Shown here: positions 13,066 to 49,029 of the stretch, one piece after another
Position numbering within the stretch: the first letter of the stretch is position 1
Layout: each line of letters opens with the position of its first letter
Source of the DNA: an uncultured Bacilli bacterium
GTDB lineage: Bacteria > Bacillota_I > Bacilli_A > RF39 > UBA660
Direction of reading: 5' to 3'
DNA: 64,000 bases
NCBI GenBank assembly: GCA_934098505.1
Contig: CAKOOR010000002.1
Location: 83,279 to 147,278 of the forward strand
Notes under the pieces: generated by a model
The model's database searches: none
What the model saw: the letters and a program-made list of their open reading frames with translations, nothing else
Told to the model about the DNA's origin: nothing
Made by a program: the position numbers and the translations under genes

Positions 13066-13590
13066 TTATTTGATTTTTATTTTAAGATTGGCTAAGATTT
13101 TTCCAACTAAAAATGATATTTTATCACTATTTTTAGTAGCTATTGATTTACAGATAGCCTTACCACCTACGGTAAAACTAGAAATGAAAGCTGTAAGTAA
13201 AACGGATATAATGCTTAAATTAATATTGGTTGAGTTACTAACTGATATTGCTAAGACAGCGCCAATAGAACCACTGATAATTCCACAAATATCGCCAATA
13301 ACATCATTACATATACTAGAAATTTTACTAGAATTTTTAAGTAAGCCGATAGTTTCTTTACCACCTTTTATTTTTTGAGAAGCAATTGACAAGAAAGTCT
13401 TTTCTTTACTCGTTAAAACTGCTACACCTATCATATCGAAGATAATGCCTATTACAATTATTAAAATTAATATTATAAATAAAAAGATACTATTCAATGA
13501 GTTTGATATAATATTAGAGATAATACTAAATAAGCATGATAGGATAAAAGTTAATAAAAAAACTTTATATATCCAGGCTTTATTATTCAT
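13066..13590 (-). CDS. hypothetical integral membrane protein
   Basis: The AGGAGG RBS precedes MNNKAWIYK. Four or more hydrophobic helices. Confidence 0.5.
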   Translation of the reverse strand: MNNKAWIYKVFLLTFILSCLFSIISNIISNSLNSIFLFIILILIIVIGIIFDMIGVAVLTSKEKTFLSIASQKIKGGKETIGLLKNSSKISSICNDVIGDICGIISGSIGAVLAISVSNSTNINLSIISVLLTAFISSFTVGGKAICKSIATKNSDKISFLVGKILANLKIKIK

Positions 13591-13640
13591 AATTCCTCCT
13601 ATATAAAGTAATATTCTAATTTTTGTATGGTATATCAAAA

Positions 13641-14079
13641 GTTAATTTTACGGCTTGAGGTCGAGTTGAGTTTCTCTAAATATCTTCCACTTGATTACTC
13701 ATTGGCACTTTCGTCTTTAGGATATTTAATTAATATTTAATTCATTAATTACTCGATTGCCACTTAGTCCGCACTTCAATACTCTTAATATAGACAGTCT
13801 AGAGGTTTTCCCTGACATAAGTAACTATACTTATTCGCTTTTGCAAGCATTATTTCAACTTATAGTATTCCTAATACTCACGCACGACATACGTAACTTT
13901 GAAATGACGTAATGAAAGGATGTGGGTTATATGCCATTATAACTTTCCTTAGATTTTAAATCTTATATTCACCCTAACTTGGGCCGATAAAGCAAATATA
14001 AGAAGTGTCGGTAATGTAATTGATGGATTTTTAGCCCCATCTTCATATAGTGTTATGACTAGAATAATGCACCACACAT
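13641..14079 (-). ncRNA. candidate structured leader/ncRNA (~430 nt, ORF-free, GC-richer than surroundings) transcribed from consensus promoter
   Basis: No ORF on either strand. Local GC is elevated. It contains GGGUGAAU and GAUGGGGC segments faintly reminiscent of a c-di-AMP (ydaO) riboswitch. Identity unresolved. Confidence 0.3.
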
Positions 14080-14086
14080 AGCCGAG

Positions 14087-14115
14087 ATTATAACACAAGA
14101 TATTTCGTTTGTCAA
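14087..14115 (-). promoter_or_regulatory. consensus sigma-A promoter (TTGACA-17-TGtTATAAT) reading leftward
   Basis: Minus strand: TTGACA (14115-14110), a 17-bp spacer, then the extended -10 TGTTATAAT (14095-14087). All three elements are perfect matches. Confidence 0.7.
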
Positions 14116-24829: not shown

Positions 24830-26245
24830 TTAGTCAATATCAATGGTAATTTTACAACCATTTTCTTTATTTTCAAATGAGTAATCAACTTTGAAACCTT
24901 GTAATTTCAAATTATTAATAACATCTTCAATATCTTTTTTAGCAATATCTAAATCTTCTTTATGGGTTGAAGGTGTATCATTTGTTAGGTTACCTAAAAG
25001 ACTCATAGGGTCAAATAATTCATCATCTTCTTGTTTATTTAAGTTACTATTTAAGTTTGAATTAATTTGTTCTTGATTATTTTTAATTGGTGTAAAAAAT
25101 TTATTATTTGGATTTAAATTACTAATTGATGAGTTATCAAAACTATTAGCAAATGAATTAGAACTAGTAAAATTAGAATAGCTGTCTGGTTCTGGTAAAG
25201 GTTCATTATCTGAACTTGCACTTAGATTAAGATCTGGTTCTAAAACTTCTAAATCCTTCTTTACCGGAGTTGGTTCTTCTGGCTGATCAAAGTTAAAAGA
25301 GAAATAACCTTTGTTACCAACATTTTGTTTAGCTTGGTCTTCAGGCGCTAGAGGTTCTAAAGTTTCAAAGAAAGTAGTTTTATTTGGTACTTCATAAGGA
25401 TTAGTTAAAACGTCGCTATTATTAGAAATTGGTTCTTGTAAAGGATCAATTATTTCGACATTAGGTTTCTCTAAAATTTTTCCACCATTATTTTCGGTAT
25501 CATCTGGGTTTTCGCTATAATCTTTTAAAATATCATCAGTTGGTTGTAATTTATTAGGATTTTTATTGATGTCAAAAGAATTATTTTTAATAGTATCTGC
25601 ATTAAAACTTAAATCAACTAAAGGAATATCAGTTTTATTTTCTTCTTCTTTTAGTTTTTTTAACTCTTGGTCTAATTGACGAACAGTAAGACGCTCAGTA
25701 ATTATTCGGTTTAACCATTCTTTTTCCTTTTCAGCATCATTTAAAACTAATAGACTTCTAGCGTGTCTTTCACTAATCTTGCCTTCAAGTAAAGCTTGTT
25801 GAACACTTTCGTCTAAGTTTAAAAGACGTAATTTATTAGCAACTGAACTTTGGGAAATTCCCATTTTTTGGGCTAATTGTTCTTGAGTATAACCTTTATC
25901 CAAAAGATTTTTATAACTTCGGGCTTCTTCAATTGGGGTTAAATTTCTTCTTTGAATATTTTCAACAAGGGCTATTTCAGCAGAGGAATTATCATCAATA
26001 TTGGAAATTACAGCAGGAACTGTAGTAAGACCAGCCATGATTGAGGCCTTATAACGTCTTTCACCAGCAATTATTTCATATTTACTTCCTAATTTTCTTA
26101 AAACAAGAGGTTGAATTATACCGTGTTCTTTAATTGAAGAAGCTAATTCTTTTAGACCTTGCTCATCAAAGGCTAATCGTGGTTGGAAACGATTAGGTAT
26201 AATATCATCAACACTTACTTGTAAAACATTATCTTCCATTTTCAT
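24830..26245 (-). CDS. noc: nucleoid occlusion protein Noc-type ParB homologue with ~250-aa low-complexity insertion
   Basis: It is directly downstream of rsmG, the canonical noc position. PNRFQPR, GISQSSVANKLRLL and ISERHAR follow the Noc pattern (PNRFQPR/GQSTIANKLRLL/ITERHAR), not the Spo0J pattern (PNPYQPR/SRPHIANHLRLL). There is a long N/S/P-rich disordered region before the C-terminal domain. Confidence 0.7.
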   Translation of the reverse strand: MKMEDNVLQVSVDDIIPNRFQPRLAFDEQGLKELASSIKEHGIIQPLVLRKLGSKYEIIAGERRYKASIMAGLTTVPAVISNIDDNSSAEIALVENIQRRNLTPIEEARSYKNLLDKGYTQEQLAQKMGISQSSVANKLRLLNLDESVQQALLEGKISERHARSLLVLNDAEKEKEWLNRIITERLTVRQLDQELKKLKEEENKTDIPLVDLSFNADTIKNNSFDINKNPNKLQPTDDILKDYSENPDDTENNGGKILEKPNVEIIDPLQEPISNNSDVLTNPYEVPNKTTFFETLEPLAPEDQAKQNVGNKGYFSFNFDQPEEPTPVKKDLEVLEPDLNLSASSDNEPLPEPDSYSNFTSSNSFANSFDNSSISNLNPNNKFFTPIKNNQEQINSNLNSNLNKQEDDELFDPMSLLGNLTNDTPSTHKEDLDIAKKDIEDVINNLKLQGFKVDYSFENKENGCKITIDID

Positions 26246-26293
26246 ATTTTTTGTGGCCCCTTTACTATTATAGTCTATATTTATCATACATTA

Positions 26294-31866: not shown

Positions 31867-32189
31867 TTAATCTCCTTTATTAAACTTGTAAAATTAGATT
31901 CCAGTTCTTGAAAGGAAACATTTTTACAAGTGTTCTTTATCATTATAATATATTTAGCTGAATTTTTGAATTCTTTTTTATAGTTATCCACAAGGAAACG
32001 TACTTGTCTTTTTATTTTGTTTCTTTCCACAGCAGTACCATAACTTTTTTTTACGGCAATACCAAACTGTGGATAACTTTGGGGATAACTTTTTAGATAG
32101 ATTGTAAATAATTTATTAGTAACAAATTTTTTGTTGTGAATAATTTCTTGAAAATCATTGTTGGCTTTAACCATTTCTATTCTTTTCAT
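31863..32189 (-). CDS. rnpA: ribonuclease P protein component
   Basis: FGIAVKKSYGTAVERNKIKRQVR. Confidence 0.85.
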   Translation of the reverse strand: MKRIEMVKANNDFQEIIHNKKFVTNKLFTIYLKSYPQSYPQFGIAVKKSYGTAVERNKIKRQVRFLVDNYKKEFKNSAKYIIMIKNTCKNVSFQELESNFTSLIKEIK

Positions 32190-32225
32190 ACTAACTCCTT
32201 AAGGAAAAAACCACTAGGTAGTGGT

Positions 32226-32348
32226 TTACTTACATAATACTTTACGTCCTTTTTTTCTTCTTGATTTAAGAATATTGCTTTCTTTTCTAGCAAAGAAACC
32301 ATGTTTTTTAGCTTTTTTGCGTTGATTTGGTTGATAAGTTCTTTTCAT
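32226..32348 (-). CDS. rpmH: 50S ribosomal protein L34
   Basis: [40 protein letters not shown]. Missed by the ORF track because it is short. A TTGACA-18-TATAAT promoter lies at 32409-32380 on the minus strand. Confidence 0.85.
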
Positions 32349-32417
32349 TTTGACACCTCCACATCTAATTAGCAAAGTTATTATAATAAAATTTTTAGGA
32401 TATTGTCAAGGTTTTAA

Positions 32418-32450
32418 TGATTATTATTACTTCCCAACCCACCCACCCTT
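32418..32450 (-). repeat. G-rich dispersed repeat copy B, abutting rpmH -35
   Basis: The minus strand reads AAGGGTGGGTGGGTTGGGAAGTAATAATAATCA. It ends 8 bp upstream of the rpmH TTGACA. Confidence 0.7.
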
Positions 32451-32520
32451 AAAGGGATGTTTTTAAAGAATAGTTTATGATTTTAGTTTTATGTTTTAGA
32501 AATTTTATATTTTGATAAAT

Positions 32521-33056
32521 TGTGGATAAGTGTGGATAACTTTTCTTTTATTATTATTATTATATATATATTCATCATCATAATACTGTGGATATGTGGA
32601 TAACTTTTAAAAAAATCCCGAAAGTACGCCAATAAAATGACCGTTTTGAGGTGTTGATAACTTTTGAGTTATCAACAGTTGGGGTGTGGATAACTGTGTT
32701 TTGAGGTGTTGATAACTCCAAAAATAGTCAAAAATCGACCAAAATTTACCTAAAAAAAGTGTCAAGTTTTAGTGTCAAGTAAGAAGTTATCCACAGTTTT
32801 GCCTAAAAATAGTGCATTTATGGGAAGTTATCCACAGGCGTGAGCCCTTATAAACACTGGGCTCAAATGAGTTATCCACATTATCAACAGGTACTACCAC
32901 CCAAGTTATCCACATGTTGATAACAAAAAAAGCCCTAAACTGTGGATAACTCAAAAATTTCCCAGACTTCTGGGAAAAAAACTGTGGATAAACTGTTGAT
33001 AAGTTGTTGATAACCTGTGGACAAAACTGTGGATAACTTTACTAGGGGTGTTGATA
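32521..33056. other. oriC: cluster of >=20 DnaA boxes (TTATCCACA/TTATCAACA) with AT-rich (TTA)n/(TA)n tract
   Basis: Perfect or one-mismatch boxes, in both orientations, at 32521, 32531, 32587, 32595, 32652, 32669, 32686, 32707, 32787, 32828, 32872, 32881, 32906, 32915, 32941, 32973, 32984, 32995, 33007, 33018 and 33048. An AT tract lies at 32546-32582. Confidence 0.9.
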
Positions 33057-33134
33057 ACTTTAAATCGGTAAAAAAGTACGAAAGTTCTTTACTAAAGTTT
33101 TAGGATGTTATAAAATAGGTGTTGATTATTGGTT

Positions 33135-34508
33135 ATGAGTGGGGTGATAATTTTGAAATCCGAGGAATTATGGGATAAATTTCTTTCTGTAATGCAAGAA
33201 AAAATGAATCCTATTTCCTTTAATACATGGTTTAAACCGTTAAAATTGCAAGAACTTAATACTAAAGATAACAAAATTATCATTCAAGTACCTATGGGTG
33301 TGCATAAAACGACTTTGGAAACCAGTTGGCATCAAGTAATTGAAGAAACTTTACAAGAGTTAACTGGTAATACTTTTGAACTATTGTATGTTTTAGAAGA
33401 TTTACAAACTGCTAAAGATAAACCTTTAGATAAGGTAAAAGCTAAAAAAAATAATGATGAAGTATTTGTAACGAACTTAAAGAAAGAGTTTACATTTGAT
33501 AATTTTGTAACTGGAGATACAAATAAATTTGCGAAGACAGCTGCGATAGCGGTGGCGGAGGCTCCGGGAAAAATATATAATCCTTTATTTATGTATGGTA
33601 AAAGTGGGGTAGGTAAGACTCATTTAATGCATGCGATAGGTAATTACATAACTGAACATTCGGACTTGAAGGTTTTATACACAACAAGTGATAGTTTTAA
33701 GGATGATTATACTAATATTGCTGGAGGGACGAATGATAATTCTTTTGAAAGAGCTGAATATTTCAAAAATAAGTATCGTGATGTTGATGTTTTGCTTATT
33801 GATGATATTCAGTTTTTAGTTGGAGCTGAAAAGACCCAACAAGGTTTTTTTCATACATTTAATGAATTACATGATAAAAATAAACAAATAATAATTACAT
33901 CAGATCGTTCACCAGAGGATTTAAAGCTTTTGGAGGAACGTTTAAGAAGTCGTTTTACATGGGGTCTTCCGGTTGATATTTATCCACCTGATTATGAACT
34001 TCGATGTCGGATAATTAGGGATAAGATAAGATACTTGAATTTATCCACAATGATGAATGATGATGTTATTAACTATATTGCTAATTCGTGTGATACCGAT
34101 GTAAGGGAAATAGAAGGAGCGATTAATAGATTACAAGCCTATACAGCTGTCTATGCGCCACCTAATATTACTTTAGAATTTGCAATGGAAGCCTTAGGTG
34201 ACTATGTAAATAACAATATATATTCAATTAGTAATATAACTGTTGTACAAAAAGCCGTTGCAGATTATTATGGGATAACAGTTGAAGCCTTAAAAGGAAA
34301 GAAGAAATCAAAGAATATAGCTTATCCAAGAATGCTTGGAATGTATATGGCTCGTATTATGACAAATGAGTCATTCCCAAGAATAGGTTTAGAGTTTGGT
34401 GGTCGTGATCATTCTACCGTTATTCATGCTTGCGATAAAATAGAAGAAGATTTAAAGGATAATAAACAATTACAAGAGATTATTAATGAAATAAAAACAA
34501 AAATTTAA
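33135..34508 (+). CDS. dnaA: chromosomal replication initiator protein DnaA
   Basis: The AAA+ Walker A GKSGVGKTHL and the C-terminal DnaA signature. The start is ambiguous: TTG 33129, ATG 33135, or TTG 33153 with a GGGGTG RBS. Confidence 0.9.
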   Translation: MSGVIILKSEELWDKFLSVMQEKMNPISFNTWFKPLKLQELNTKDNKIIIQVPMGVHKTTLETSWHQVIEETLQELTGNTFELLYVLEDLQTAKDKPLDKVKAKKNNDEVFVTNLKKEFTFDNFVTGDTNKFAKTAAIAVAEAPGKIYNPLFMYGKSGVGKTHLMHAIGNYITEHSDLKVLYTTSDSFKDDYTNIAGGTNDNSFERAEYFKNKYRDVDVLLIDDIQFLVGAEKTQQGFFHTFNELHDKNKQIIITSDRSPEDLKLLEERLRSRFTWGLPVDIYPPDYELRCRIIRDKIRYLNLSTMMNDDVINYIANSCDTDVREIEGAINRLQAYTAVYAPPNITLEFAMEALGDYVNNNIYSISNITVVQKAVADYYGITVEALKGKKKSKNIAYPRMLGMYMARIMTNESFPRIGLEFGGRDHSTVIHACDKIEEDLKDNKQLQEIINEIKTKI

Positions 34509-36036: not shown

Positions 36037-36501
36037 ATGGAAGAATTATATTCAATTAATGAAGATACATTATTTTTAGAAGGAGTTGTAGATGATAGGG
36101 GTAAAGTTTTAACTAAAATTTATGAACAAGATAAAGTGTTGAAACTTTATGATACACCAACAAACATTATAAGATACGGTTGTGAATACTTTGGCTCGAC
36201 TTTAGAAGGGCGTCAAAAAGGGTCGATGAGTTTATTGGGAATTAAACATAAAGTTCCGGTAATGGTTGAAGGAAGTATGGAATTAATATTCTTTCCAATG
36301 TGTTCACCAAGAATAAGAGATTGTTCGTGGGTATGTTTTAATAATATTGTAAGCTATAAAAGAAGTGGATATGATACAGAGGTATTATTTAAAAATGGTC
36401 AAAAAATAACTTTAAATATTTCTTATGGAATATTTGAAAATCAATATATGCGTGCTACTAAATTAAAAATGGTTAATACCCTAAGAAAATTGGCAAAATA
36501 A
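36037..36501 (+). CDS. comK: competence transcription factor ComK-like
   Basis: CEYFGSTLEGRQKGS...HKVPVMV, IFFPMCSPRIRDCSWV and ISYGIFENQYMRAT align with B. subtilis ComK. Confidence 0.7.
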   Translation: MEELYSINEDTLFLEGVVDDRGKVLTKIYEQDKVLKLYDTPTNIIRYGCEYFGSTLEGRQKGSMSLLGIKHKVPVMVEGSMELIFFPMCSPRIRDCSWVCFNNIVSYKRSGYDTEVLFKNGQKITLNISYGIFENQYMRATKLKMVNTLRKLAK

Positions 36502-39636: not shown

Positions 39637-42111
39637 ATGGATAATAGAGAATCAAAAAATGTAGTTAATGTAATGAAAGATTCCTTCATTAACTATGCAA
39701 TGGATGTAATTATTGCTCGTGCATTACCAGATTTGAGAGATGGTTTAAAACCAGTACATCGTCGTATTTTATACACAATGTATGAAGATGGTTTAACTCC
39801 TGATAAAGCATTCCGCAAGAGTGCTACAACAGTAGGAGCCGTTTTAGGTAAATACCATCCACATGGTGATACATCAGTTTATGATGCGATGGTAAGAATG
39901 GCTCAAGACTTTAGTTATCGTCATCCATTAGTTGATGGTCATGGTAACTTTGGTTCAGTTGATGGATATGGTGCTGCTGCTTATCGTTATACAGAGGCTA
40001 GGTTATCAAAAATTTCTTTAGAATTATTAAGAGATATCAACAAGAATACAGTAGACTTCGTTCCTAACTTTGATCAAACTAAGAAAGAACCCGTAGTAAT
40101 TCCTAGTAGATTTCCAAACATTTTAGTAAATGGTACCATGGGTATTGCTGTCGGTATGGCAACAAATATTCCTCCTCATAATTTAGGAGAAGTAATTGAT
40201 GGCTGTGTTGCTTATATTGATGATAATAATATTACTGTTGAAGGGTTGATGAAGCATATCAAAGGTCCGGATTTTCCAACAGGGGCAGCTATTTTAGGTA
40301 ACAGAGGTATTAAACAAGCTTATGAAACTGGCCGTGGGACAATTACTATTAGAGCTCATGCAGAAATCGTAGAGCACAATGGTAAACAACAGATCGTATT
40401 TACAGATATTCCTTACCAAGTAACTAAGATGGAACTTCAGAAGAGAATTGCAGAATTAGTAAGAGATAAGGTACTTGAAGGAATTACTGATTTACATGAT
40501 GAATCAACATTAACAGAAATTAAGTTGGTAGTACATTTAAAGAAAGAAGCTAATGCTAATGTAGTATTGAATAATTTATATAAACATACCTCTTTACAAA
40601 CTACTTATGGTATTATATTCTTGATGTTAGATCAAGGTTTACCAAAGACTTTAAATTTAAAAGAAATTATTAGTAAATATATTGATTATCAAAGAGAAGT
40701 TATTTATAGAAGAACTAAATATGACTTGGAAAAAGCCGAAAAGCGTGTTCATATTTTAGAAGGATATAAGATAGCTTTAGATAATTTAGATGCAGTTATT
40801 AACATAATTAGAAATGCTAAAGATGATGATACTGCTAAACATGAATTAATGACTAGATTTAATTTGGATGATGTTCAAGCTGAATCTATATTAGAATTAA
40901 AGTTAAGAAGATTAACTGGCTTAGAACGCAGCAAGATTGAAGAAGAATTGAATGATCTATTAAAATTAATTGATGAATTAAAAGGCATTTTAGCCAGTGA
41001 TGCGAAGATTTATGACATTATTAAACAAGAATTACTTGAAATTAAAGCTAAATATGCTGATGAACGTCGTACAGAGATTGATATGACTGCTATTGATTAT
41101 ATTGATGATGAAGCATTAATTCCTGAAGAGAATATAGTTGTAGCATTAACTAATAAAGGCTATATTAAGAGAACTACTAGTGATACATTTAAGTCACAAA
41201 ATCGTGGAGGTGTTGGTGTTAAGGGTATGACTACGAATGAAGAAGACTTTGTAGAGCATTTAGTAGATTTATCAACACACGATTATCTATTGTTCTTTAC
41301 TAATAAGGGTAAAGTTTATCGATTAAAAGGTTATGAAATTCCACAATTCGGTCGTCAATCAAAAGGTTTGCCAATAATCAACTTATTGCAAATAGATAAA
41401 GATGAACGAATAAGCAGCGTTATTAAAATTTCTGCGAATGATGATAAAAAATACTTGCTATTTGTAACAAAAAGTGGTATAATTAAGAAGACGATTTTAA
41501 CCCAATTTGAAAATATACGTCAAAACGGAAAAATTGCTATTACGTTGAAGGAAAATGATGAATTAATAGCTGTTAAAAAGACTAGTGGCGAAGATATGGT
41601 ATTAATTGGTTCAAGTGAAGGGCGTATGGTTAAGTTTACCGAAGACGAGATCAGAGATATGGGACGTACTGCTAGCGGTGTTAAAGGTATTGATTTAGAA
41701 AATGACGCAATAGTAGTTGGTGCTGAAGTGGTAAATAATGATGATAATATTTTACTAATAACTGAAAATGGCTATGGTAAACAAACGAAGGTTGCAGACT
41801 TTAGACAAACAAGAAGGGGATCCAAAGGAGTTAAAGCGTTAAATATAACTGATAAGAATGGTAAAATAGCAGACTTTAAGGTTATAGGCGATGCTAATGA
41901 TGTAATAATAGTAACTAATTCTGGTATGATAATGAGAATGCCAATTAGTCAGATAAGTGTATTAGGTAGAATTACTCAAGGTGTTAGATTGATAAATTTG
42001 AAAGATGGTCAAAAAGTATCAACAATAACTTTGATTAAATCCGACGAACAATCAGAAGAAGATGGAACAACTGCTGGAATTAATGAAGAGGCAACACCAG
42101 AAAATGAGTAA
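39637..42111 (+). CDS. gyrA: DNA gyrase subunit A
   Basis: The active-site region AAMRYTE (here AAYRYTE) and the GyrA-box C-terminal beta-pinwheel repeats. Confidence 0.95.
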
Positions 42112-42122
42112 TGAAATTTATA

Positions 42123-42722
42123 TGTTTCACGTGAAACGTATAAACAAGTAATAAGTAAAATATAAAAACAATGTTTCACGTGAAACATTGTTTTTTTTGC
42201 ATAATTTTTTAATGTTTCACGTGAAACATTGACTGTTGATAAAATTTTATGGTTATTTGTTTTAAATAAAAGTTATTTTCAATGATATTTAGAATTAATT
42301 TTTTTAAATACTATTTAAAATTTATATGTTTCACGTGAAACATATAAAAAATGTTGATATTTATTATTTAAATAATAATAGGATAATAAAACTTTACAAC
42401 ATTATTTATATTAAAAAACTAATGTTTCACGTGAAACATTGTTATTAACAAGCATATTTGTATGATTAACGTTAAGCTGATTCAATGGCTTATTAAATAA
42501 TTAATAATCTTGCAATAAATATTTAATGCTTTTTGTTTAAAGTATTTTATACATTAAATTAATTTGGCAGCTAAAATTTATTTATATAAATAAATTATTT
42601 TTTGATTTAAGAAATAAATTTTAATTTAATCATTATTTTAATGTTTCACGTGAAACATTAAAATTTTGTTCATAATAAATAATTGCTAATTAATTATTTT
42701 TTATGATGTTTCACGTGAAACA
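42123..42722. repeat. array of seven parS centromere palindromes (TGTTTCACGTGAAACA)
   Basis: Six perfect 16-bp parS copies at 42172, 42213, 42327, 42423, 42642 and 42707, and a 15/16 copy at 42123. The flanks extend each palindrome to 18-26 bp. Confidence 0.85.
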
Positions 42723-42840
42723 TCATAAAAAAGTTATAAACAGTTTTGCTTGATAAAATATTTTTTATATTGAAGTAGTTATTTATAAAGGAAGGTTAAA
42801 ATTTTTGTTGTATCTTTGGAATTTTTATGGTAATATTAAG

Positions 42841-42919
42841 AGGTGCAATAAGTACATAGGAACTTGGTCAGGGTAGGAATACAGCAGCCATAACTATCAA
42901 TGCTTATGTGCACTTTTTT
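42841..42919 (+). ncRNA. ffs: small SRP RNA (4.5S/ffs)
   Basis: UUGGUCAGGGUAGGAAUACAGCAGCC contains the domain-IV GGUCAGG ... AGCAGCC motifs around a GUA[GGAA]UAC tetraloop stem. The 5'/3' ends pair (gtgcaataag/cttatgtgcac). A T7 terminator and an extended -10 TGgTAATAT lie at 42828-42836. Confidence 0.65.
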
Positions 42920-42932
42920 TATGGAGTTTAAT

Positions 42933-43349
42933 ATGGAACAATACTTTGAATTACTATATAAATTGGCCTTAAAAGCCTTTAGAAACGGCGATATTCCAGT
43001 GGCAGCCATTTTAATTAAAAATGATAAGATCGTTGCTACAGGTTACAATAATAGGCATAAAAAAGGATATGTTTTAGGCCATGCCGAGGTAAATGCTATT
43101 ATCAAAGCTGAGAAGAAACTAAAAGATTTTAGATTAGATGGATACACTATGATTACTACATTAAAACCATGTAAGATGTGCCAAGCCGTAATTGAGGCTT
43201 CAAGAGTATCTAAAGTTTATTACATTTTGGAAGGTAAAGATGATAAAAGTTATCCACAAGCAAATTATGTAAAATTAGATAAAATAGATCAAAAATTTAT
43301 TAAAAATTATTTTGATTTATTTAATGAATTCTTTCAAAATATAAGATAA
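42933..43349 (+). CDS. tadA: tRNA-specific adenosine deaminase
   Basis: HAEVNAI...PCKMC zinc-deaminase motifs. GGAG RBS. The ORF-track start 42900 would overlap the SRP RNA. Confidence 0.75.
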   Translation: MEQYFELLYKLALKAFRNGDIPVAAILIKNDKIVATGYNNRHKKGYVLGHAEVNAIIKAEKKLKDFRLDGYTMITTLKPCKMCQAVIEASRVSKVYYILEGKDDKSYPQANYVKLDKIDQKFIKNYFDLFNEFFQNIR

Positions 43350-43389: not shown

Positions 43390-45030
43390 ATGGATTATCA
43401 AGTATTATATAGAAAATATAGACCTCATGATTTTGATTCTTTGGTAGGTCAGGAATATACGAAAAAATTATTAAAAAATAGCGTTATAAATAATAAGTTT
43501 GCTCATGCCTATATATTTACCGGGCCTAGAGGTACAGGTAAAACAAGTAGTGCTAAAATATTTGCTAAAGCTATTAATTGTTTACATCAGGTTGACGGAA
43601 ATCCATGCAATAAGTGTCAAAATTGTGTAAACTTTGAGAGCAGTCCGGATATAATTGAATTAGATGCTGCTTCTAATAATGGCGTAGATGATATAAGAGA
43701 GATAATAAATAATGTAAGACTAGCACCAAGTAGCATGAAAATTAAGGTTTATATTATTGACGAATTTCATATGTTATCCACAAGTGCTTTTAACGCATTA
43801 TTATTAACTTTAGAAGAGCCACCAAAAGATGTTGTATTTATTTTGGCAACTACTGATATTCAAAGTGTTCCGATAACTGTTTTATCCAGATGTCAAAGAT
43901 TTGATTTTAAACCAATTTCTATTCAAGATATTGAAGATAGATTGAAATATGTTTGTACTGAAGAAAAATTAAATGTTACGGATGAAGCTATTAAAGAAAT
44001 AGCAATGATGTCAAATGGTGGATTGAGAGATGCTTTAAGTATTTTAGATCAAGTAGCAAGTAATGGAGAAGAGATTACTGTTCAAGATGTAATTGCTAAT
44101 TTTGGAGGAGTATCAAATAAAAAGATAAATCAACTATTAGATTATTATGAAGCTAATAGTGTAAGTGAATTAATAGATTATATTAATGAGATTAAAAATG
44201 ATGGTATTGATATAAAAATTTTAATTGATAAATTGGTAACAAGAATTAAAAATGTATTAATAGATATTAAATTAGATAATTATAATGGGAAACTAGATTT
44301 TGATAATTTATATAACTTAGTTTTTGAATTAAATAAATTATTGACTAGTGAGAGAAATGGTGCTAATTATTATGATTTATTAGAAATTATATTTTTAAAG
44401 TATATAAATTATTTCCCGGGAAATAATTTTGTGGATAAAAAAACGACAAAGTTATCTGATCGTGAAAAAGAGTCAGCTGTAATCCAAAATGCGGAAGAAA
44501 GTCCAATAGTATCAGTACCTGCAGCAGAGCAACCAATTATTTCCCAAAAAAATCAATCTCAAGAAAAAAATAAAAATATTGACTTTGATGTAGATATTAG
44601 AATAAATAATACTTTTGTTAATGCTAAAAAAGAATTTTTAAATAATATAAAAAGCAAGTGGAATGATTTTGTTATCTATGAAAGTAATGCTAATAAAGCT
44701 ATGCTATCTTATTTAGCTGATACTAATATTGTTGCAGCTTCGAATAAATATGCGATATTGACTAATAATTTAGATATTACTAATGATTTAATTAATCAAA
44801 ATATTAAAACATTAGAAAAAGATTTTAATTTATTTTTTAATGGTAATTATTGTTTAGCGGCTATATCGCCAAAAAAATGGGAACAAGAACGAAATAAATA
44901 CATAAATAATATCAAAAATGGATATAAATATGAGATAATAGATAATGATATAATTATTAAAGAAGATAAAAGTGAATTAGAAAAGATTGCTAAGGAAATC
45001 TTTGGCAATAATTATAAGAAAGTAGAATAA
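43390..45030 (+). CDS. dnaX: DNA polymerase III subunits gamma/tau
   Basis: GPRGTGKTS Walker A and the Zn module CNKCQNC. Confidence 0.9.
   Translation: MDYQVLYRKYRPHDFDSLVGQEYTKKLLKNSVINNKFAHAYIFTGPRGTGKTSSAKIFAKAINCLHQVDGNPCNKCQNCVNFESSPDIIELDAASNNGVDDIREIINNVRLAPSSMKIKVYIIDEFHMLSTSAFNALLLTLEEPPKDVVFILATTDIQSVPITVLSRCQRFDFKPISIQDIEDRLKYVCTEEKLNVTDEAIKEIAMMSNGGLRDALSILDQVASNGEEITVQDVIANFGGVSNKKINQLLDYYEANSVSELIDYINEIKNDGIDIKILIDKLVTRIKNVLIDIKLDNYNGKLDFDNLYNLVFELNKLLTSERNGANYYDLLEIIFLKYINYFPGNNFVDKKTTKLSDREKESAVIQNAEESPIVSVPAAEQPIISQKNQSQEKNKNIDFDVDIRINNTFVNAKKEFLNNIKSKWNDFVIYESNANKAMLSYLADTNIVAASNKYAILTNNLDITNDLINQNIKTLEKDFNLFFNGNYCLAAISPKKWEQERNKYINNIKNGYKYEIIDNDIIIKEDKSELEKIAKEIFGNNYKKVE
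44406..44441. repeat. 36-bp module: Noc-binding-site palindrome TTATTTCCCGGGAAATAA + DnaA box TGTGGATAA, inside dnaX
   Basis: AAATTATTTCCCGGGAAATAATTTTGTGGATAAAAA is identical to the 46850-46885 copy. Confidence 0.7.
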
Positions 45031-46180: not shown

Positions 46181-46999
46181 ATGAGTAGTTTAAAAATGAT
46201 ACAAAATTTAATTAATAAATATGAGACTGGAAGACTATCTCATGCTTTTTTAGTTGAAACAAATAATATAGATCTATGTTTAAATGATATTAAATTATTT
46301 GTAAAATATATTAATTGTTCACATAAATATAATGAGAATTGCAATGAATGTAATTTGTGCAAGCTAATAGATTTGAATAATTTACCAAGTTTAACTATTA
46401 TTGAACCAGATGGTATGAGTATTAAGAAAAATCAATTGCAAGAATTGCAAGATAAATATAGTATGAAACCTGTATATTCAAAATATAATACTTATATTAT
46501 TTTAAATGCTGAATTGATGAACGCTTCATCTGCTAATAGTATACTTAAATTTTTAGAAGAACCAACTGACCATATAATTGGATTTTTAATAACTACTAAT
46601 AAAGAAAAAATGCTAGATACAATAATTAGTAGATGTCAAAATGTAAAGTTTATTTATAAGGATACAAATGAAAATAATGAAAATATTAAATTAATCGCAA
46701 CAGAGTATTTAGATCAAATAGAAAATGATAATTCATTTTTAATAAATAAAACATTGATTTTGAGTACATTGACAACTAGATATGATATAAATAATTTGTT
46801 TATTGAAATTTTGTATCAATTAATGAAAAAAATTAGAGAAAATTATTTCCCGGGAAATAATTTTGTGGATAAAAATCTAAATAAATATAATATGCAAATT
46901 GAAATCGTTCGAAAAGTTTTAATCATGATTAAACAAAATGTTAATTTAGAATTATTATTAGATTACTTTGTTATAGAGATGAGGAAATTAAATGAATGA
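46181..46999 (+). CDS. holB: DNA polymerase III delta' subunit
   Basis: AAA+-like with a cysteine module CNECNLCK. Positioned before yaaT. Confidence 0.7.
   Translation: MSSLKMIQNLINKYETGRLSHAFLVETNNIDLCLNDIKLFVKYINCSHKYNENCNECNLCKLIDLNNLPSLTIIEPDGMSIKKNQLQELQDKYSMKPVYSKYNTYIILNAELMNASSANSILKFLEEPTDHIIGFLITTNKEKMLDTIISRCQNVKFIYKDTNENNENIKLIATEYLDQIENDNSFLINKTLILSTLTTRYDINNLFIEILYQLMKKIRENYFPGNNFVDKNLNKYNMQIEIVRKVLIMIKQNVNLELLLDYFVIEMRKLNE
46850..46885. repeat. second copy of 36-bp NBS+DnaA-box module, inside holB
   Basis: Identical 36 bp. It encodes YFPGNNFVDK in the same frame as in dnaX. Confidence 0.7.
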
Positions 47000-48477: not shown

Positions 48478-49029
48478 ATGAAATTAATTGTTGGATTAGG
48501 AAATCCTGGTAAGGAATATGAAAATACAAGACATAACATTGGTTTTATGGTACTAAATTATTTTTCGGGAAATAATTTGTGGAAAGAAAAATTTAACGGT
48601 ATGTATTGTCAACAAAATGTAAAGGGAGAAAAAGTTATATTTTTAAAGCCACTTACTTATATGAATTTATCTGGTAGTTGTGTAATTAAATATGTTAAGT
48701 ATTTTGATATTAAAATAGATGACATTTTAATAATTCAAGATGACTTAGATTTACCTTATATGCAGTATCGCTTAAAATATGATAGTTCAGCAGGTGGTCA
48801 CAATGGAATTAAATCAATTATTAATAATTTAGGAACGCAAAAAATACCAAGATTAAAAATAGGTATAGCTCATGATCGTAGTATAGATACTAAGGATTAT
48901 GTGCTGGGACATTTTAATAAAGAAGATTTAATTTTGTTTGAAGAAAAAACTAAAATATTCAATAATATTATAAATGATTTTATTTCCCAAGATATTAATT
49001 ATTGTATGGCAAATTATAATAGAAAATAG
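48478..49029 (+). CDS. pth: peptidyl-tRNA hydrolase
   Basis: MKLIVGLGNPGKEYENTRHNIGF and AGGHNGIKS. Confidence 0.9.
   Translation: MKLIVGLGNPGKEYENTRHNIGFMVLNYFSGNNLWKEKFNGMYCQQNVKGEKVIFLKPLTYMNLSGSCVIKYVKYFDIKIDDILIIQDDLDLPYMQYRLKYDSSAGGHNGIKSIINNLGTQKIPRLKIGIAHDRSIDTKDYVLGHFNKEDLILFEEKTKIFNNIINDFISQDINYCMANYNRK
48555..48590. repeat. degenerate third copy of NBS-like module inside pth
   Basis: AAATTATTTTTCGGGAAATAATTTGTGGAAAGAAAA, in-frame as NYFSGNNLWKEK. Confidence 0.45.

Follow-up and report, generated by a model that had tools for sequence, protein, structure and literature searches.

ParB proteins of other organisms nucleate at parS sites, close into clamps in a CTP-dependent manner, slide along the DNA and recruit condensin. 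On plasmids, centromeres such as sopC of F consist of tandem repeats that bring many ParB-type sites together in a short non-coding stretch. [quoted passage not shown] These sites are dispersed, with several inside genes, and noc has soj-spo0J beside it. Noc itself is targeted to the membrane by an N-terminal amphipathic helix (PMC8429893). Compact chromosomal parS clusters are already known outside the Firmicutes. For example, Caulobacter crescentus has a compact cluster a few kb from oriC which supports one ParB complex (PMC5815017), and clustered chromosomal parS sites near oriC also occur in Pseudomonas aeruginosa (parS1-4) and Streptomyces coelicolor (PMC7022226). Clusters of this kind extend over several kb, run across genes and lie near parAB.

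Here we describe a parS array from an uncultured member of the Bacilli, found in a window of 64 kb, by which we mean the whole stretch of DNA that was analysed. The array shares with the Spo0J/parS system of B. subtilis the 16-bp consensus TGTTNCACGTGAAACA, an origin-proximal position, a host of the class Bacilli and the presence of a Noc paralogue with separate Noc-binding sites (NBS). In contrast to B. subtilis, all of the sites seen are in a single spacer of about 0.7 kb and the noc locus is without soj-spo0J. Compared with the Caulobacter-type clusters, seven sites are packed into 600 bp of one intergenic region, their flanks are symmetric and variable, and no parAB genes are nearby. A compact array of this kind is new and unusual for Bacilli, and it is set apart by its density (seven sites in 600 bp), a fixed locus in about 70 species, symmetric variable flanks, NBS frequently interleaved with parS in relatives and the lack of par genes nearby. 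We consider it likely that the seven palindromes are a chromosomal centromere, a compact parS array that nucleates dimers of a canonical Spo0J/ParB which is presumably encoded outside the window.

The parS array and its position beside oriC

The features of the array and its surroundings are as follows (those without a sign have no strand).

31984-33057: oriC DnaA-box cluster of about 27 boxes, upstream of dnaA (33129-34508); GC skew changes sign there
39637-42111 (+): gyrA, left boundary of the array (NF004043, 1155 bits)
42112-42833: gyrA-SRP RNA intergenic region, non-coding, GC 16-23%, holding the entire array
42123-42138: parS-1, one mismatch, final base G (TGTTTCACGTGAAACG); 28 bp with symmetric flanks (42117-42144)
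42172-42187: parS-2, perfect; extended palindrome of 32 bp (42164-42195), followed by a T run
42213-42228: parS-3, perfect; palindrome of 20 bp; 41 bp from parS-2
42327-42342: parS-4, perfect; extended palindrome of 28 bp (42321-42348)
42423-42438: parS-5, perfect; palindrome of 20 bp
42642-42657: parS-6, perfect; extended palindrome of 30 bp (42635-42664)
42707-42722: parS-7, perfect; extended palindrome of 36 bp (42697-42732); RNA hairpin -17.2 kcal/mol
42834-42929 (+): small SRP RNA, right boundary of the array (RF00169, 60 bits)
42930-43349 (+): tadA-like deaminase gene, followed by dnaX (43390-45030)

All 64 kb were scanned with the pattern TGTTTCACGTGAAACA at up to two mismatches. Exactly seven matches were found, six of them perfect and one with a single mismatch, and together they span 42123-42722; dinucleotide-preserving shuffles of the sequence gave a mean of 0.03 matches and a maximum of 1. 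The sites are 16-bp inverted repeats that fit the parS consensus and stand 35-220 bp apart; from one match to the next, the scan gives spacings of 41-219 bp. No open reading frame of at least 60 aa is present in the gyrA-SRP RNA spacer, and sigma-70-like promoters are no more frequent there than in shuffled sequence. Despite DnaA-box-like 9-mers beside some of the sites, the array contains just one DnaA box at up to one mismatch. Helical phasing of the parS spacing was also considered and set aside, as the signal was weak and the genomes are non-independent samples.

Measured from the DnaA-box cluster and the turn in GC skew, the array is 9.1-9.7 kb away on the right, close to the origin. To the left of the origin are rnpA, yidC, jag, mnmE, mnmG, rsmG and a ParB-family gene; to the right are dnaA, dnaN, a ComK-family gene, recF, gyrB, gyrA, the array, the SRP RNA gene, tadA, dnaX, ybaB, recR and holB. 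This gene order is typical for Bacilli. The ComK-family gene (36037-36501, +) sits between dnaN and recF, and occupies the same place in the related loci L001, L088 and L090.

An earlier note on this DNA had read the palindrome as the canonical parS consensus, with six perfect copies and one single-mismatch copy within 600 bp of AT-rich non-coding DNA between gyrA and SRP RNA/tadA, beside oriC. The match to the consensus is exact, the scan returns the same count, GC content falls to 16% and the DnaA-box cluster is at the distance given above, so this description stands in full. The copies do have symmetric flanks of their own, as the note had also claimed, but its range of 18-26 bp for the extended palindromes does not; from parS-1 to parS-7 they measure 28, 32, 20, 28, 20, 30 and 36 bp.

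Conservation of the array in related species

Relatives were collected with a DnaX query, using one genome per species, which gave 80 loci at 39-97% identity. The closest public genomes by this query are from uncultured gut Bacilli near 'Mycoplasma sp. CAG:956'. When parS sites were counted across the clade with the standard consensus TGTTNCACGTGNAACA at up to one mismatch, 358 of 362 sites in 1.53 Mb fell within the gyrA-to-dnaX interval, which makes up 6.8% of the DNA examined. In the 72 species with a complete interval the median number of sites is 4 and the maximum 9; at least two are present in 71 species, at least three in 59 and at least five in 34. Among the relatives, L049 alone is without parS. 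Arrays of different species differ in the number and spacing of their sites. In the closest relatives the parS sites stand as conserved islands amid otherwise unalignable spacer DNA, and directly 3' of gyrA these genomes still have the first perfect site along with the A run and T run that flank it. Such conservation at one locus argues that the array is an old clade-wide feature maintained by selection and not the peculiarity of one genome.

It could be asked whether the palindromes are a mobile repeat of the REP or MITE kind which accumulated in one spacer and has no role as a centromere. Several copies do stand in AT-rich DNA, and in one relative (L021, 1-185) five parS copies form a clean, iteron-like direct repeat with a tandem unit of 41 bp. 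However, the window array has no tandem repeat or fixed period, its copies have only the palindrome in common and are separated by unrelated spacers, and across the clade the copies are confined to one orthologous interval instead of being dispersed. We find a mobile repeat scarcely credible as the explanation. The L021 repeat suggests that arrays grow via tandem duplication before their spacers diverge.

The same observations bear on the comparison with plasmids. Dense packing of sites in short non-coding DNA is a true likeness to plasmid centromeres, one to which L021 adds its tandem unit, and the earlier note had drawn this parallel. The window array differs in lacking a fixed period, in its unrelated spacers, in its chromosomal location, in its chromosomal parS sequence and in the lack of adjacent parAB. 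As the array is the rule in its clade and compact chromosomal clusters are known elsewhere, the plasmid analogy is unneeded and was dropped. The note's statement that parS sites are dispersed in Firmicutes agrees with the range of -27 to +91 degrees in B. subtilis (PMC4536313). A seven-site array is therefore unusual when set against the dispersed sites of B. subtilis; within its own clade it is not, with 71 of 72 species having their sites at the same locus.

Symmetry and hairpin potential of the parS flanks

The invariant core of the sites is really 18 bp, with A at -1 and T at +1 in 228 of 229 sites. Beyond this core the flanks have no fixed sequence, yet they are mutually complementary above the expectation from base composition. 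At offsets 2-7 the observed complementarity was 0.70, 0.57, 0.53, 0.54, 0.48 and 0.43, against expected values of 0.48, 0.33, 0.33, 0.36, 0.36 and 0.37, and the excess had vanished by offset 8. Symmetric extensions of at least 5 bp were found at 89 of the 229 sites, where 9 would be expected. Furthermore, the two flanks of a site have changed jointly in aligned copies. At parS-4 this is seen in L008 and L009, where symmetry is kept; at parS-7 the flanks read ATGATG...CATCAT in the window, ACAATG...CATTGT in L004 and GACTATG...CATAGTC in L009. Because the correlation is within sites, it is not explained by independent preferences of the two half-sites. Candidate causes are selection for a hairpin or cruciform, hairpin-templated correction, or an origin of the sites in inverted duplications.

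This symmetry, together with predicted RNA hairpins of -8 to -17 kcal/mol, would also be expected if the palindromes were mainly hairpins, which might terminate transcription or insulate gyrA from the SRP RNA gene, or form cruciforms in the DNA, and their match to parS were incidental. The best case for such a role is parS-2, which lies just 3' of gyrA, has a predicted RNA hairpin of -14.3 kcal/mol and is kept with its flanks in relatives. It is the only site that fits the description of a terminator as a GC-containing hairpin followed by a T run; the other six have no proper T tail, and the T run at parS-7 is on the wrong side. A hairpin role would not keep 18 bases invariant over 81 genomes while the flanks drift, and the core is the ParB consensus down to its known degenerate position. 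We therefore regard hairpins as a very improbable main function. On the centromere reading, they may form a secondary layer, in which parS-2 would double as the gyrA terminator hairpin and the symmetry of the flanks may come from hairpins that form there or that template repair.

The Noc-like protein and its predicted binding sites

The window contains one ParB-family gene and two perfect NBS sites.

24830-26287 (-): Noc-like gene, sole ParB-family gene in the window, after rsmG
44410-44425: NBS in dnaX, perfect TATTTCCCGGGAAATA, 1.7 kb to the right of the array
46844-46859: NBS in holB, perfect TATTTCCCGGGAAATA, 4.1 kb from the array

The best-scoring model for the Noc-like protein was the NCBIfam family TIGR04285 (Noc), at 271.6 bits and below the cut-off of 315, and its best solved relatives are the Noc structures 7ng0 and 7nfu. 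At the specificity positions 173/179/184/201 it has Q-K-N-R, and Q-K-(N/S/T)-R is found in 118 of 120 close homologues. In true ParB proteins R173 and G201 are invariant, Q173 and R201 shift recognition to NBS, and one lysine, at either 179 or 184, is sufficient to permit the switch (Jalal et al., PMC7383237). The Q-K-N-R variant has no entry in the accessible part of the supplementary data of PMC7383237. Given Q173, K179 and R201, the Noc-like protein is predicted to read NBS rather than parS.

The start of the Noc-like protein is probably Met15 (26245), and the 14 extra N-terminal residues of the window's open reading frame are unconserved. In 95 of 116 orthologues just 14 residues precede the motif IIPNRFQPR. 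With so few residues ahead of this motif, the Noc-like proteins of the clade lack the membrane-targeting helix of Noc, and the window's protein is no textbook Noc. The name noc, which the gene had been given before, therefore suits its DNA-reading residues and not its N-terminus. Between its DNA-binding domain and a small C-terminal domain that resembles that of Noc runs a low-complexity linker of about 260 aa with many N, S, P, D and E residues. Owing to this linker, the length of related proteins varies from about 300 to 700 aa.

We know of no description of NBS clustered at a centromere. The loci of the relatives contain 214 NBS sites, and in 37 of the 72 complete intervals NBS stand among the parS sites, often only 6-21 bp apart (22-37 bp start to start). 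Members of the window's own genus have parS alone in the spacer, and their NBS are located in dnaX, holB and pth. The NBS inside dnaX is over-represented in this sample, since a peptide pattern that encodes this site was among those by which the relatives were retrieved; the parS counts and the NBS in spacers are unaffected. The locus thus resembles the Noc-NBS system in having a nearby ParB-family protein with Noc-type residues, perfect NBS at 1.7 and 4.1 kb and NBS inside the arrays of half of the relatives. It is unlike that system in that parS is not NBS, hybrids between the two are absent, and the clade's Noc-like protein is without the helix that defines Noc function (PMC8429893).

Several smaller observations concern these coding-region sites. 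An NBS with two mismatches lies in pth (48559-48574), where L003, L004, L005 and L008 have a perfect one. An identical in-frame stretch of 36 nt is present in dnaX (44406-44441) and holB (46840-46875), and is translated as NYFPGNNFVDK in each; within it, a perfect NBS flanked by AAAT/ATTT precedes a perfect DnaA box (TGTGGATAA). This combination appears confined to the window's genus, as a DnaA box within 30 bp accompanies only 12 of 213 NBS sites. In L012 (11020) and L013 (4948, 4990), dnaX carries parS at the linker position where most relatives have NBS, and the DnaX linker stretch seems to tolerate either site in frame.

Separation of parS and NBS half-sites

Three types of half-site dominate in the 81 genomes, namely TGTTTCAC (548 occurrences), TGTTCCAC (142) and the NBS half TATTTCCC (442), and other variants are near background. 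Position 5 of parS varies between T, C and rarely A, this being the known degenerate position of TGTTNCACGTGAAACA. T-type halves of parS pair freely with C-type ones, and 38 sites are mixed in this way. Among the 538 full sites of the 81 genomes, by contrast, there is no parS/NBS hybrid. The absence of hybrids points to two separate homodimeric proteins with distinct specificities, and would imply that a dedicated parS-binding ParB exists apart from the Noc-type protein; it is the strongest indirect evidence for such a ParB in this analysis. Some relatives had at one stage seemed to have arrays of NBS only, as if parS and NBS were interchangeable. That was wrong, and these species carry the symmetric variant TGTTCCACGTGGAACA.

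Search for the cognate ParB and ParA

The 64-kb window and the adjoining 10 kb on its left, together about 74 kb around oriC, yielded neither a ParB with R173 and G201 nor a ParA. Neither was found in the origin regions of about 80 clade members, which amount to about 1.6 Mb at loci around dnaX or noc. Every open reading frame of the window and of the clade loci was searched for homologues of ParB and Soj, and the Noc-like gene alone matched. The absence of spo0J and soj downstream of noc, which had been pointed out before for the window, extends to L088-L090. In the window, L088 and L089 a PBP1A gene on the other strand stands directly after the noc-like gene, and in L090 one additional gene separates the noc-like gene from the PBP gene.

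A metagenome scan with a Spo0J-type query returned 80 low-GC loci, of which only one (L108) has an NBS. Its order is mnmE, NBS, mnmG, rsmG, noc-like (Q-K-S-R, without the N-terminal helix), soj and spo0J (R...G). The L108 Spo0J family is large, and the order rsmG, noc-like, soj, spo0J, mscS, DUF951 was found wherever the context was examined. The identities of its MnmG and Noc proteins place this lineage outside the window's clade, as an outgroup. Since L108 carries all three genes, a helix-less Noc paralogue coexists with Soj and Spo0J in the outgroup. In the window's clade, a rearrangement has taken soj and spo0J out of the noc locus. The Spo0J-type genes that could be traced are all from other lineages, with either rsmG-parA-parB without noc or the outgroup order noc-soj-spo0J.

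Two sets of candidates were rejected in this search. The first is a protein from the related locus L091 (P0117, 433-1203), whose first 108 residues are those of the window's Noc-like protein and are followed by a Spo0J-type DNA-binding domain (R...G) and C-terminus, with DUF951 next to it. L091 is a single metagenome contig of 3.9 kb from a related species; its rsmG-noc part has 89% nucleotide identity to the window, its gene order conflicts with that of the window and L088-L090, and the Spo0J part of P0117 has no relative above 52% identity. Being a singleton without close relatives, P0117 was not counted as evidence, and it is taken to be an assembly chimera or a one-off noc::spo0J deletion fusion. 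The second set comprises Spo0J-type matches of 172-191 aa, which resembled ParB proteins without a CTP-binding domain but were artefacts, caused by scaffold gaps or by a frameshift.

Two features of the outgroup may be added. In this gut lineage (L180, L184; 10001-10882) Spo0J has a serine at the reportedly invariant G201, with LSMSHAR in place of MGHAR. At every outgroup locus viewed, a perfect NBS with AAAT/ATTT flanks lies just upstream of mnmG (L108 1542; L180 5343; L184 4928).

These results raise the question of whether Spo0J has been lost in the clade and the array is bound instead by a dual-specificity, Noc-derived paralogue acting as the centromere clamp, or by a protein of another kind than the canonical ParBs. 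The Noc-like gene is the only member of the ParB family within 74 kb of oriC, its locus has neither soj nor spo0J, the lack of a membrane helix gives its product a ParB-like architecture, and NBS stand amid the parS sites of half of the relatives. However, residues Q173, K179 and R201 specify NBS (PMC7383237), and a dual-specificity binder should accept hybrid sites, of which there are none even though T- and C-type parS halves mix. In addition, the outgroup lineage has kept both the Noc-like protein and Spo0J. Loss of Spo0J with takeover of the array by such a binder therefore seems improbable to us.

A related proposal concerns the Noc-like protein itself. As it is without the membrane helix, the Noc-derived paralogue could now serve as a second ParB-like CTP clamp that loads at the locus where Spo0J does, or that replaces a lost Spo0J/Soj, instead of acting in nucleoid occlusion. 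The result would be a dual centromere. We put this forward tentatively and think it rather unlikely.

Proposed mechanism and significance

On the preferred reading, a canonical ParB encoded elsewhere would act at the array in the following way. By analogy with other organisms, a parS-bound ParB dimer would take up CTP, close to a sliding clamp and move onto adjacent DNA. Seven loading sites in 600 bp would let clamps load at a high rate at one point, about 9.4 kb to the right of oriC, and could build a single dense ParB-DNA complex over the gyrBA-dnaX region. Such a complex would mark the origin for segregation and would probably load SMC condensin at one defined locus, compared with the many dispersed ones in B. 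subtilis.

In model Firmicutes the scattered parS sites lead to several competing loading points for ParB and condensin. A large uncultured gut clade whose arrays hold as many as nine sites within about 1 kb, at a fixed position, would offer a natural single-point-loading design in Bacilli. It allows one to ask how the number and spacing of sites tune the loading of ParB-CTP clamps, why parS flanks stay symmetric without a fixed sequence, and what adjacent parS and NBS loading sites do for two sister clamp families. The Noc paralogue in this clade could not reach the membrane through the known helix. If it is true that the clade lacks Spo0J, the parS binder would be of a new kind.

Other features of the window

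An OLE (ornate large extremophilic) RNA is encoded in this gut bacterium at 13611-14091 on the minus strand (202 bits), and is adjoined by an open reading frame for a small membrane protein (13066-13638).
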